Shown here in pieces: positions 1-3,000 of a stretch of DNA of 64,000 nucleotides. Numbering within the stretch: position 1 is the first letter of the stretch; each line of letters starts with the position of its first letter. The stretch lies in assembly GCF_035594765.1 (NCBI RefSeq), contig NC_085844.1, forward strand, positions 160,658,107 through 160,722,106, written 5' to 3'. Made by a program: the position numbers. This stretch comes from Anolis carolinensis (Eukaryota).

Positions 1-3000
1 AATGAACAATCCACACTGTCTACCACTCTGGATTTCCTGTAATTAGATTTAAATTATCATTGACTTAAATTGCATATTTAAACTGTGATCAGTAAAATAC
101 TATGAGGGTGTATGGAAAAGATGGAAGGAGACTTCCATTAGAGACAGAAAAGGTATTTCTTCTTAAAGAGTGCATATAATAACTGCATGATGAGTTGATA
201 ATAGACTGTAATGCAAGCACATTAAATGCACCCTTTTCCAAACATACCTGCTATAAACCTTGAACGAAATTGATGTCTTCATTAAATTGCTGGGAGGACA
301 GCTTTCACTGTATGGTCATTGACTAATACTTTGCAGATCCTTCTCTCGCTAACAGCAATGCAATGATCATGGTGACAAACTATGACAATGCTACAAAGAT
401 GACTCTACAAAATGATTCCATCGTTTTCAAGAATTGGGGGGGGGGGGGGAAGAGAACCTATTTCTTTTATATTACCCTGTAATTAAACAACCCCGTGTGT
501 GTGTATACATACATGTCAATTTGTAACATACAGTTATTTTTAGATTTACCATCTAGTGTAGATCCAGTGAAAATATAACAAATGCATCTCCACTGTAGAA
601 TTTGTACAGTTTGTCACCAATTCAACCACCATGGCTCAATGCTATGGAATCTTGGGATTTATTGTTTGATGAGGCCACAGCATTCTTTTATAGAGAAGGC
701 CAGATGACTAACAACTCCCATGATTCCATAGCATTGAGCCATGACAGCTAAAGTGGTATCAGTTTCTACAGTGCAACCACCTCTGCAATCAACCCAATAA
801 CACTAAGGGCACATACAGGGGCCGGGCTGTGGCGCAGCTGTTGAGCAGCTGCCTTAAATCACTCTGACCATGAGGTCATGAGTTCGAGGCCAGCCCGTGG
901 CGGGGTGAGCACCCGTCAATTAAAAATAAAAAATAGCCCCTGCTCGTTGCTGACCTAGCAACCCGAAAGATAGTTGCATCTATCAAGTAGGAGATAAGGT
1001 ACCACTAATAAAAGTGGGGAGGCAAGATTAACTAATTTACGACCTGGTATGAGGAAGTGCCGTCAGTGTGGATGATGAAGCAGCTGCTCCCCCCTGTGGC
1101 CAGAATCGAACATCCCCTCAGAAGAAAGTTAACTTGCCTCTGCGTGTGTGTCTCTCAGTCTCTGTTTGATGTGTTTATGGGCATTGAATGTTTGCCCTAT
1201 GTGTGTTATAATGTGATCCGCCCTGAGTCCCCTTCGGGGTGAGAAGGGCGGAATATAAATACTGTAAATAAATATAAATACTGTAAATAAATACATTCTA
1301 GTTGTTCCGTCCCCCAGGACGATGGTTTGCCTTACCTATTGGTCGTTTGTTTGTTTTCCCTCCTTTACATTTTGTTTGAGCCTCTGGCTGCAAAAGCCTA
1401 GGAAAAATGGCTTGGAATCTGCAAGAGCTGGCTGCAGTTTTCTTTGCAGTGATTGGTCAAAGAGTGCAACATCTTAGGACCGCCCTTTTTACCAGGGTCT
1501 AGTCTCCATTTTGGAGCTTCATTCTGGCTATAGTCTTCCAACGTGCTGGAGCTGTGCAAGGCTAACTGGGACAAATCATCCTCAAAACCAGGCCAATCTA
1601 AGCCTATCCAAATTAGATAAGTATTGAATTATATTGATCTGGAATAGGAAATCTAGTTAGAGGAGCAGAGTTATTCCATCGCTTCTAGAACTAATCTTTG
1701 CTGTAAAGATAGGGAAGGAAAGAGTTTCTCCTTCTAATATAGGCAGCGTGATTAGGGTATAGTGGTTTTATAATCACTTTTGCCTTCTGGAACCAGGGAT
1801 AATTCTGTGACTAAAACCTATAGAAATTTGTTTCATTTTCTGCAACTTTAAGATCTGTGCCAGGTTTACAACCTTGTATGAATAAACATCCTTTTTTGAA
1901 GTTATCCAGACTCAGTCGTTCAATATCTATAGGACAGCTTATAGGGATTTGCAGTTCGCCCGGATAAAGGACAGCACGTTTCAGTTTTATAGTTTTTTAT
2001 TGTCCGGCGGACGGCACAGTTTTGAGGTAGATCAGCGGTTTTTCCGCTTGAGCTAGCTTGCACGGCTTTATAGTTTTTTATAGTTTAGGAAGTTTTAGTA
2101 TAGGCTGCGGCTTTTCCGCCTGAGCTCAGTCTGCATACCTAAAGACTCTACCAGCGTCTGAGGCAGTGGAGCCCGCTCTCAGACCTGAAGGAGTCAAATA
2201 GTGGGGCTCTATTTCCTTGCTATTTGGCTCGCGTGTGCGCACGTAGCCCAGTGGCTTTCTGGGTTTGCACAGGCTGTGCAGTTCCCAGCAACGTCCAGGG
2301 CTCCCTCGGCGGTAGACCTCGAGCCGCGGAGCACCAGCGACAGTTCTTTGGCTGGCTCTGAGGCGTGAAGCCCACCAGAACCAGGCTAGAACCTGGACAG
2401 GCCTGGCAACGCTGCTGCGAGTTCGGCCGGAGCACTCAACCGGCTTTGACAGCCTCTTCATCAGGAGTTCGGCCGGAGCACTCGGCCGGCTTTGACCTGC
2501 CTCATGGTCCGGCGGTGGTGACCTGCCTCATCGTCCTGCGGCGGTGACCTGCCTCATCGTCCTGCGGTGGTGACCTGCCTCATCGTCCTGCGGTGGTGAC
2601 CTGCCTCATCGTCCTGCGGTGGTGACCTGCCTCATCGTCCTGCGGTGGTGACCTGCCTCATCGTCCTGCGGTGGTGACCTGCTTCATCGACCTGCGGTGG
2701 TGACCTCCCTTCACAGCGGGGAGGAGGCGTCTCTTCTCTCCTCCTTTCCAAAGCCAGCCTCGGTGCTCCTTCGGCGGCAGGCCTCGAGCCGCAGAGCACG
2801 AGGTGCTTGAAAATTTGGCGAAGTCGCCATTTTGGCAGTTTACGTCACTCGGGCAAGGGAGGTATCAAGTGGCAAGTTGCTGTCAGTTGACATTTTGCAG
2901 CTTGCCCACCAAAGTCTGGCGCCAAAGGTCACAATCTTTGTAAAGTATAGTTACTTAGTGATATATATTGCTATGGTTAAGTGCTGTGAATTGTATTATA

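Follow-up and report, generated by a model that had tools for sequence, protein, structure and literature searches.

A very young BEL/Pao retrotransposon of Anolis carolinensis with a primer site not of the tRNA 3'-end type: a candidate for self-priming

Introduction

What primes reverse transcription of a BEL/Pao element that carries no TGG behind its 5' LTR and whose first internal bases are complementary to a segment of its own LTR? This question is raised by a retrotransposon in a stretch of 64,000 nucleotides from Anolis carolinensis, which was analysed as a whole and is called the window in the following. To our knowledge, self-priming has been demonstrated experimentally only in the Tf1/sushi branch of Ty3/gypsy, and it has been predicted in a few plant lineages. 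The original prediction for this locus had proposed self-priming with the remark that this is not a described property of BEL/Pao, and our literature search agrees with the remark in that it found no paper proposing self-priming for this superfamily.

According to the ICTV profile, BEL/Pao elements use host tRNA-Arg or tRNA-Gly as primer, with an 18-nt primer-binding site (PBS) complementary to the 3' region of the tRNA (PMC8742986). Tf1 pairs its first 11 bases with the PBS, and the cut by RNase H falls between bases 11 and 12 (PMC7175516). Two further duplexes, formed by PBS-adjacent sequences with LTR sequence downstream of the primer, belong to the structure described as the Tf1 'pretzel' (PMC10085805). 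Predictions made from sequence alone cover plant lineages, namely Tcn1-clade chromoviruses and TAR Ty1/copia elements such as Houba and Osr-1 (PMC6317226).

Results

The element as a whole occupies positions 1303-8136 of the window. Its boundaries and repeats are as follows:

1298-1302, no strand: left target-site duplication, 5 bases (CTAGT), repeated behind the 3' LTR at 8137-8141
1303-2018, forward strand: 5' LTR, 716 bp, TG...CA, identical to 7421-8136 at 716/716 positions
2467-2752, forward strand: 26-nt tandem repeats in the 5' leader, eight overlapping 104-nt copies at 26-nt spacing
7412-7420, forward strand: polypurine tract AGCGGGGAG abutting the 3' LTR, read from the sequence
7421-8136, forward strand: 3' LTR, with the complementary site present again at 7698-7706
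8137-8141, no strand: right copy of the target-site duplication, CTAGT, matching 1298-1302

The perfectly identical LTR pair together with the 5-bp duplication fixes the end of the 5' LTR at position 2018. Since the LTRs are identical and the duplication is intact, there was almost no time for decay, and the window copy can be called very young; it is a non-autonomous LTR retrotransposon of the BEL/Pao type in the genome of Anolis carolinensis. Further copies of the family or solo LTRs were not found in the window, as BLAST of the element against it returned only the element itself and its own internal repeats.

To the coding part of the element belongs a single feature:

3087-7332, forward strand: gag-pol remnant in one part, from Pfam scans and comparison with relatives

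The remnant contains, in this order, gag with a weak DUF1759 match (23.4 bits, under the curated cut-off of 25.4), a protease-side region, the zinc finger and core of the integrase, and the BEL/Pao-type integrase tail DUF5641 (E 2.4e-24 in Pfam). All 59 homologues found for the window protein are BEL/Pao, most of them with PF05380 and PF18701, and together with the integrase tail they confirm that the superfamily had been assigned correctly in the original prediction. With only BEL/Pao homologues and DUF5641 as integrase tail, the element does not fall among the Ty3/gypsy chromoviruses to which the pol of the Tf1/sushi group belongs. The nearest homologues are Anolis carolinensis proteins with 84-95% identity.

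Pfam scans of the window ORF yielded no match to reverse transcriptase or RNase H, even at E values up to 10. In relatives, 417-635 extra residues lie between protease and integrase, holding PF05380 and, where detected, PF00078. The closest Anolis relatives of the window copy likewise lack this reverse transcriptase and RNase H block, whose absence had gone unmentioned in the original prediction. The integrase of the window copy is damaged by one out-of-frame loss, and there are no in-frame stops in the matched stretches. The same deleted form is present at several other loci with 84-95% protein identity, and it was therefore copied after the coding losses. Judged from its sequence, the window copy is a deletion derivative of a BEL/Pao family and not an autonomous member. 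Without reverse transcriptase, RNase H and part of the integrase, it must have moved in trans with the aid of a related helper; because its own enzymes are missing, it must use working cis signals.

The bases at the LTR edge and their partner inside the LTR are described by three features:

1575-1588, forward strand: LTR site complementary to the post-LTR bases, with an exact 9-nt core at 1580-1588; candidate self-primer or 5' strand of a long-range helix
2019-2032, forward strand: primer-binding-site position, with no TGG at its start; exact pairing of 2019-2027 with 1580-1588
2064-2140, forward strand: diverged duplicate of the U5-end/post-LTR/hairpin unit, with 53 of 91 columns invariant when aligned with 1978-2066

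Bases 2019-2027 read GTTTTGAGG. A TGG is absent at and near the LTR edge, the first one being located at 2167, 148 nt downstream, and the primer site of the window element is not of the tRNA 3'-end type. A PBS as far downstream as this first TGG was excluded, because the LTR edge marks where the 3' end of the primer sat. Within the window, the exact reverse complement of 2019-2027 occurs just twice, at 1580-1588 and at the equivalent position of the 3' LTR, 7698-7706, and pairing extends to 12 of 14 positions between 1575-1588 and 2019-2032. The core is directly preceded by TCAT (1576-1579) and directly followed by CA. Pairing stops at the LTR edge, as A2018 would face C1589. The original description of the site thus holds in both pair counts, in the flush end of the pairing and in the missing TGG. 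Five of the nine pairs are A-U, and the duplex energy amounts to -10.7 kcal/mol for the 9-mer pairing and -12.2 kcal/mol for the 14-mer. The duplicate unit at 2064-2140 was weighed as another primer site but rejected, as only about 5 pairs are kept.

Two controls were used to judge the complementarity against chance. When the real post-LTR bases were compared with dinucleotide shuffles of the LTR (n=20000), a flush exact complement of at least 9 nt appeared in 60 of 20000 shuffles (0.003), and in 207 of 20000 (0.010) if offsets of 0-3 nt were allowed. Mock 'LTR edges' placed every 7 nt across the rest of the window reached a flush complement of at least 9 nt in 84 of 8041 cases (0.010). The flush 9-nt complementarity is genuine and moderately unlikely by chance, but not overwhelmingly so.

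The window was searched for sequences of the tRNA type. ARAGORN, a tool blind to a short PBS match, reported no tRNA gene in it, and at the gathering score Rfam gave nothing for its whole length. For 1303-3100 on both strands and E values up to 10, a search to which a short PBS match is likewise invisible, Rfam returned only lncRNA and snoRNA hits at chance level (E 2-9), none of them tRNA-like. Canonical tRNAs carry U at position 33, a purine at 37, a 31:39 pair and a conserved T-loop. Measured against these rules, the complement of the post-LTR bases is presumably not a 5' half with its end in the anticodon loop, nor a 3' end lacking CCA, and half-tRNA priming of the window element is probably a poor fit.

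In the predicted RNA fold of the leader, two hairpins flank the LTR edge:

1954-2012, forward strand: hairpin predicted where U5 ends, shortly before the LTR edge, from the minimum-free-energy fold
2028-2055, forward strand: small hairpin directly after the PBS position, with a core stem 2035-2038:2044-2047 in the predicted fold

The predicted fold of the leader is closed by the helix 1580-1588:2019-2027. This helix was present in the minimum-free-energy fold for 39 of 40 combinations of start and end, and its mean pair probability was at least 0.969 in 37 of the 40. The enclosed domain (1575-2040) reached a z-score of -4.9, and none of 100 shuffles folded as well. Next to this main helix, the predicted fold holds only a 3-bp helix (1592-1594:2013-2015) and the U5 hairpin, the latter with the stems 1954-1960:2006-2012, 1962-1967:2000-2005, 1969-1971:1996-1998 and 1973-1975:1992-1994. 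Counterparts of the side duplexes of the Tf1 'pretzel' were no better than chance in the window, where fractions of 0.73 and 0.23 of the shuffles were at least as good.

To place the site relative to transcription signals, the LTR was scanned for TATA, two initiator patterns, CCAAT, GC-box and AATAAA/ATTAAA, a type of scan that cannot fix the transcription start. One feature bears directly on the layout of the LTR:

1881-1886, forward strand: AATAAA, the only one in the LTR and the probable polyadenylation signal, from the motif scan

ATTAAA was not found in the LTR. Going by the AATAAA at 1881, the R/U5 border would probably lie near 1900-1910, and the complementary site at 1580-1588 is located upstream of this sole signal, as needed for a primer in R. 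With an RNA start at the site, R would then span some 320 nt, available to the first strand transfer. The scan detected no TATA about 30 nt upstream of 1575-1580, the nearest TATA-like string being TATAG at about -50, and neither of the two initiator patterns starts at 1575-1580. A TATAA is present at 1769, 112 nt before the AATAAA, and a TATAT at 1630; both are rival candidates for directing initiation and would start the RNA downstream of 1588. A scan for sigma-70 promoters and terminators gave nothing useful, these models not being relevant to a eukaryotic LTR.

A comparison with related BEL families had been proposed in the original prediction, and relatives were collected by a genome scan. 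While an alignment of 13 diverse BEL/Pao proteins was too diverse for this purpose, one of 6 BEL/Pao proteins led to two loci, L001 and L002, among 48 pattern matches. L002 is an intact distant relative with a single ORF of 2165 aa and 32-47% protein identity to the window ORF. This intact relative is located on contig JBEVXV010000787.1, which we take to be invertebrate DNA. Both loci carry ...ACGGGGAG as polypurine tract directly before their LTR starts, and in L002 tract and LTR start match those of the window. The sequence of L001 ends before its LTR end, and the post-LTR comparison with the window therefore has L002 as its one comparator.

L002 also has no TGG after its LTR. Its post-LTR bases, GTAAAAAG, form a flush 8-nt complement of CTTTTTAC, located 129 nt inside its own LTR, and four paired positions differ from the window helix on both sides. 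The sites of window and L002 are alike in being preceded by TCA plus one base and in ending with AC, followed by CA, although an automatic alignment put the TCA of the relatives inside the window site and not before it. At 430 nt from the LTR end in the window versus 129 nt in L002, the two sites are not positionally homologous. Taken alone, the match in L002 is weak, since it pairs an A-run with a T-rich LTR: a flush 8-nt match was reached in 1322 of 10000 shuffles (0.13) and at 93 of 4572 mock sites (0.02). As one distant relative, L002 repeats the flush pattern with different letters. The minimum-free-energy fold of L002 has its register shifted by one and a z-score of only -1.0, and the 'pretzel' side duplexes are unsupported here as well, with 0.84 and 0.036 of shuffles at least as good. 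A hairpin follows the LTR of L002 at the place matching the small hairpin 2028-2055 of the window.

Local BLAST of the LTRs of L001 and L002, which are otherwise unalignable and for which a global alignment was uninformative, revealed one conserved block of 21 nt (19/21, E 0.009) that holds the site. Between the window LTR and those of L002 and L001, only matches of 8-11 nt were obtained (E at least 0.14), which we treated as chance. Among these chance-level matches, window positions 1485-1494 are an exact copy of the L002 site string.

Discussion

We regard Tf1-type self-priming as the best reading of the window element, with a confidence slightly short of even. The original prediction had arrived at the same mechanism, and the analysis upholds it in part: a PBS for a tRNA 3' end is absent, the self-complement is flush and uncommon, the helix is predicted in nearly all folds (39/40) and L002 displays the pattern again. 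Less favourable are the side duplexes of Tf1, which did no better than shuffles, the missing TATA about 30 nt upstream and the weakness of the L002 match. In the proposed mechanism, the genomic RNA would start at, or a few bases before, position 1580. Its 5' end would then fold back over the R-U5 domain, which is structured and about 430 nt long, and pair with the 9-14 nt following the 5' LTR. Where this duplex ends, at 1588 or no more than 2 nt from it, the RNA would be cleaved by the RNase H of the helper. As in Tf1, the released 5' piece could then serve as primer for minus-strand DNA synthesis at the LTR edge.

More tentatively, the reading can be widened to the whole BEL/Pao lineage formed by the lizard family and the intact relative, which would have given up tRNA priming and would prime with the first 10-14 bases of the RNA. 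Should this wider reading apply, the Anolis family of reverse-transcriptase-less parasites would keep a matched pair of primer and PBS for being copied by the helper, a suggestion to be taken with the same reserve.

The comparison with known self-primers points in both directions. Like the window element, Tf1/Tf2 of Schizosaccharomyces pombe and the Tf1/sushi group (Tj1, sushi-ichi; Ty3/gypsy chromoviruses) have no PBS of the tRNA 3'-end type. In this group, too, the post-LTR bases complement a segment of the own LTR upstream of the polyadenylation signal, and a hairpin closes the U5 end next to the duplex (PMC7175516, PMC10085805). In contrast to the group, the window element is a member of the BEL/Pao superfamily with DUF5641 in place of a chromodomain. 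It also differs from Tf1 by 9 exact pairs instead of 11, by a distance of about 430 nt between primer and PBS instead of a compact leader, by unsupported 'pretzel' side duplexes, by the lack of an own RNase H and by a segment that is only a candidate for the RNA 5' end. By analogy, the window element may work like Tf1, yet it is not a member of the Tf1/sushi group. The predicted self-primers of plants share the lack of a tRNA-type PBS and, likewise, the inference from sequence alone (PMC6317226), but belong to other superfamilies and other hosts. With canonical BEL/Pao elements (Belpaoviridae, Semotivirus) the window element has in common LTRs in the range of 0.2-1.2 kb, a short polypurine tract, a metazoan host and a gag-pol polyprotein with the BEL/Pao-type integrase tail (PMC8742986); it differs in the absence of TGG and, together with its closest Anolis relatives, in the missing reverse transcriptase and RNase H block.

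Among the alternatives, it is somewhat unlikely, though to be taken seriously, that the complementarity is a coincidence and that a host RNA serves as primer, be it the 5' half or an internal segment of a tRNA or another small RNA. A 9-mer match at about 1% of the mock sites, the still weaker 8-mer of L002 and the lack of a TATA or scanned initiator pattern at the site agree with such a primer. The description of BEL/Pao as tRNA-primed (PMC8742986) points the same way, as does the existence of half-tRNA primers in other superfamilies (PMC6317226); in the half-tRNA-primed Ty1/copia lineages Osser, Bryco and Bianca, the PBS does not start with TGG either (PMC6317226). However, the post-LTR bases of window and L002 differ, so that different host primers would be needed; even so, either element has a match in its own LTR that is flush with the edge.

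Clearly less probable is a genuine helix that is no primer but a long-range RNA-RNA contact closing the R-U5 domain, with a role in packaging, dimerisation or translation control. Its robust prediction and the strongly structured domain that it encloses (z-score -4.9) would suit this function. Used together with the AATAAA at 1881, the TATAA at 1769 would shift 1580-1588 into U3, and in a variant with the RNA starting downstream of 1588, the PBS region could contact the U3 copy at 7698-7706 near the RNA 3' end. The site block conserved between L001 and L002 fits any function, a promoter element included. Such a contact would nevertheless leave the element without any identified primer, and the exact stop of pairing at the LTR edge, which defines the 3' end of a primer, would be unexplained in both window and L002.

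That the element is a dead relic with a decayed primer site and meaningless post-LTR bases, as its defective coding region (reverse transcriptase and RNase H absent, integrase damaged) might suggest, is very improbable given the identical LTRs (716/716) with an intact target duplication, the presence of the deleted form at several other loci at 84-95% protein identity, copied after the losses, and the missing TGG in the intact relative L002.

If self-priming proves false, the window element is still without a recognisable primer and worth resolving. If it is true, all three superfamilies of LTR retrotransposons would include cases of hairpin or self priming, a spread that would bear on the suggestion that tRNA priming is a later invention (PMC3601003). 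Such elements would be systematically overlooked or wrongly judged by pipelines for LTR annotation in which a tRNA PBS is required. For the Anolis family itself, self-priming would show by what means a family that is not autonomous can keep its match to the helper.

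Anatomy of the element

The candidate for self-priming is an LTR retrotransposon with the following features.

Features of the element, in window coordinates
1303-8136: LTR retrotransposon, 6834 bp
1303-2018 and 7421-8136: LTR pair, identical at 716 of 716 positions, with TG at the start and CA at the end
Both flanks of the element: target duplication CTAGT, 5 bp
7412-7420: polypurine run AGCGGGGAG, adjoining the 3' LTR

The window contains no N, and further copies or solo LTRs of the family were not found elsewhere in it. The insertion lies just past the tail of the first of two SINE-like copies (820-1290 and 10200-10500), which have a tail rich in A and T behind a tRNA-like head, are 98% identical between 1210-1274 and 10322-10386, and gave no tRNA gene call with ARAGORN. 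The window also holds consecutive ORFs at 56402-60249 (+) that match RVT_1 (E 9e-11) and the tyrosine recombinase Phage_integrase (E 3.5e-7), by these domains a DIRS-like retroelement layout. A lone ORF with RVT_1 at 41063-41704 (+) (E 5.8e-21) is probably a piece of another retroelement.

Complementarity between the LTR and the bases that follow it

The bases directly after the 5' LTR (2019-2027, GTTTTGAGG) have their exact reverse complement at only two places in the whole 64-kb window, namely 1580-1588 inside the 5' LTR and the equivalent place in the 3' LTR. This 9-nt match agrees with the original prediction, and direct comparison reproduced the 12 matches out of 14 claimed for a widened site. 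Pairing was also said to end flush with the LTR edge, and it does, since the next potential pair, A2018 against C1589, is a mismatch. The reported lack of a TGG directly after the 5' LTR likewise held, the nearest one lying 148 nt downstream. A primer site at that TGG was dismissed, because under the standard model of reverse transcription the LTR edge would be the start point of minus-strand synthesis. A unit of about 80 nt with the U5 end, the post-LTR bases and the next hairpin (1978-2066) recurs in diverged form directly downstream (2064-2140; 53 of 91 columns invariant), where the complementarity to 1580-1588 is lost.

The chance level was assessed with two controls. When the real post-LTR bases were compared with LTRs shuffled with dinucleotides preserved (n=20000), a flush complement of at least 9 nt arose in 60/20000, and one starting 0-3 nt from the edge in 207/20000. 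With each seventh position in the rest of the window taken as a mock LTR edge, 84 of 8041 edges had a match at least as long as the observed one. The flush match is unusual, at about 0.3-1% by chance, which is suggestive, not conclusive.

At this chance level the match could be a coincidence and the true primer a host RNA of another kind, for example a tRNA half or a small RNA; we regard this, the strongest rival, as less likely than self-priming. By the canonical rules of tRNA sequence, however, the complement of the post-LTR bases would be a poor fit both to a 5' half that stops in the anticodon loop and to a 3' end lacking CCA. ARAGORN called no tRNA gene in the window and Rfam detected nothing tRNA-like around the leader, both methods being blind to a short match to a primer-binding site (PBS).

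Predicted RNA fold and transcript start

In the self-priming mechanism, the first bases of the RNA would pair with the post-LTR bases in the manner of Tf1, the self-priming element of fission yeast. Folded as RNA, 1575-2040 gave MFE and centroid structures that are both closed by the helix 1580-1588:2019-2027 (z-score -4.9).

Further structures predicted in the fold
1954-2012: hairpin at the end of U5
1592-1594:2013-2015: 3-bp helix adjoining the main helix
2028-2055: small hairpin directly after the paired bases

Varying the ends (eight 5' positions from 1303 to 1580, five 3' positions from 2032 to 2300) kept the main helix in the MFE fold in 39 of 40 combinations. Its mean pair probability was 0.969 or higher in 37 of them, and 0.854, 0.873 and 0.015 in the remaining three of the 40. 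These predictions carry little independent weight, as they largely depend on the same 9-mer.

The transcript start is the weak point of the self-priming reading. On mechanistic grounds, priming of the Tf1 type requires a transcript that starts with the paired segment, because plus-strand strong-stop DNA would otherwise copy a long unmatched primer tail. The single AATAAA of the LTR (1881) lies downstream of the site, as self-priming needs, and TCAT stands immediately upstream of the core 1580-1588. A TATA about 30 nt upstream of 1575-1580 is absent, neither of two scanned initiator patterns begins at 1575-1580, and rival start signals are found downstream of 1588 (TATAA at 1769, TATAT at 1630).

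Two relatives with LTRs

Scanning contigs of bacterial and archaeal genomes yielded two loci among 48 pattern matches, L001 and L002 (JBEVXV010000818.1 and JBEVXV010000787.1), both MAG contigs with LTRs that encode full-length BEL/Pao polyproteins and are filed as bacterial. To our knowledge BEL/Pao elements are described from metazoans only, so these contigs look like eukaryotic contamination of the MAG bin. L002 has a single 2165-aa ORF, which is 32% identical to the window ORF in the gag-protease part and 47% identical in the integrase. Its polypurine tract and LTR start (…ACGGGGAG / TGTGCCGTC…) are like those of the window (…GCGGGGAG / TGTTCCGTC…); the contig begins within its 5' LTR, and its 3' LTR is complete (7265-8311). 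Tandem repeats occupy the 5' leader of all three relatives (window 2467-2752, L002 182-463, L001 13-280), with periods of 26, 47 and ~60 nt, respectively, and units unrelated in sequence.

TGG is also missing from the post-LTR bases of L002 (GTAAAAAGGCAC…), whose first eight are complementary, flush with the edge, to CTTTTTAC (8175-8182), a site that lies 129 nt within the LTR. Four paired positions differ from those of the window on both strands with pairing maintained, and in both elements a hairpin follows shortly after the paired bases. Both sites are preceded by TCA plus one base and have a terminal AC, followed by CA; this layout is our reading and not a robust alignment, since the three site regions, when aligned automatically, have the TCA of the relatives within the site of the window rather than before it. 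The statistics of the L002 match are weak (an 8-nt complement in 1322/10000 shuffles and 93/4572 mock sites), since the bases compared include an A-run and the LTR is rich in T, and the predicted fold is one base off register with a z-score of only -1.0. At 1485-1494, some 95 nt before its own site, the window LTR includes an exact 10-nt copy of the L002 site string plus its two following bases, a match of chance level (E 0.56).

The L001 contig stops short of the LTR end, which places the primer-site position outside the contig. The LTRs of L001 and L002 share one block of 21 nt (19/21 identical, E 0.009) that includes the L002 site, all remaining matches being at most 9 nt. As the sole common block it is, by this comparison, under constraint, and it could equally be a promoter element. 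As a further rival reading, the helix could be structural and not a primer, an explanation to which we give a small probability.

A defective copy of the BEL/Pao superfamily

In Pfam searches the long ORF gave weak matches for gag (DUF1759) and for the zinc finger and core of an integrase, and a second frame gave a strong one for DUF5641 (E 2.4e-24). A database search returned 59 homologues, the top four being Anolis carolinensis proteins (84-95% identity) and the next best BEL/Pao polyproteins from fishes, sea star, scallop and arthropods with PF05380 and PF18701. On these homologues the element is assigned to BEL/Pao, as originally proposed, and its host is almost certainly Anolis carolinensis. 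The D-x-Q columns of the protease-side region (window ORF residue 812 onward) are invariant in all 17 aligned sequences, the window ORF and 16 relatives of its lineage, and fall at the expected place of the protease active-site motif, for which they are a candidate. An antisense ORF of 305 aa (3074-3991 (-)) over the 5' part of gag, a low-complexity stretch rich in repeats, had no Pfam match and is probably a composition artefact.

A reverse transcriptase or RNase H domain was not detected in the element, even with the threshold relaxed to E 10. Full-length relatives are 417-635 residues longer in the interval from the protease side to the integrase, and the extra block carries PF05380 and, where detectable, PF00078. 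This loss is common to the Anolis proteins P0001, P0002 and P0004; P0003 differs there by ~100 residues. The integrase of the window copy lacks ~126 codons with a frame change, evident against all six relatives compared (P0002, P0003, P0004, P0007, P0009, P0010); P0001, left out of this comparison, is colinear with the window ORF and appears to share the loss. In total, pol has one large in-frame and one out-of-frame deletion, and no stop codons within its matched stretches.

Because the copy is defective, its LTRs are identical and sister copies have the same losses, it must, judged from sequence, have been moved recently in trans by a helper. The long gag-protease-integrase frame (3087-7332) is still present despite the absence of RT/RNase H, and the main deletion common to P0001, P0002 and P0004 (84-95% identical) suggests a parasitic sub-family of long standing that retains coding capacity. 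A primer site decayed in a dead copy is highly improbable, as identical LTRs and recent movement in trans mean that the cis signals probably still work, the primer site among them.

Comparison with Tf1 and other BEL/Pao elements

According to reviews, the PBS of Tf1 pairs with the first 11 bases of its RNA, RNase H cleavage falls between bases 11 and 12 (PMC7175516), and priming needs a three-duplex 'pretzel', with two extra duplexes between PBS-adjacent sequences and the LTR downstream of the primer (PMC10085805). In contrast, the element, if self-priming, would do so without the full Tf1 structure: the best side duplexes of the window and L002 are no better than shuffled controls (fractions equalling or beating them 0.73 and 0.23 for the window, 0.84 and 0.036 for L002). 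The lack of TGG at the edge in both also differs from canonical BEL/Pao elements, primed by tRNA-Arg or tRNA-Gly according to the ICTV profile (PMC8742986). The terms 'PBS' and 'tRNA' do not occur in the main text of a large survey of BEL/Pao (PMC3118150), of the paper on Sinbad (PMC554778) or of a network paper on LTR retroelements (PMC2774666). In the examined passages on retrotransposon self-priming from papers that mention Pao, the term is applied to Tf1/sushi, Tcn1, TAR or a hypothetical ancestor.

Taken together, the observation underlying the prediction of self-priming was confirmed, and self-priming is the best single explanation, tentatively preferred but not established. If true, it would be a known self-priming mechanism in a new variant, in a superfamily where it is not described.
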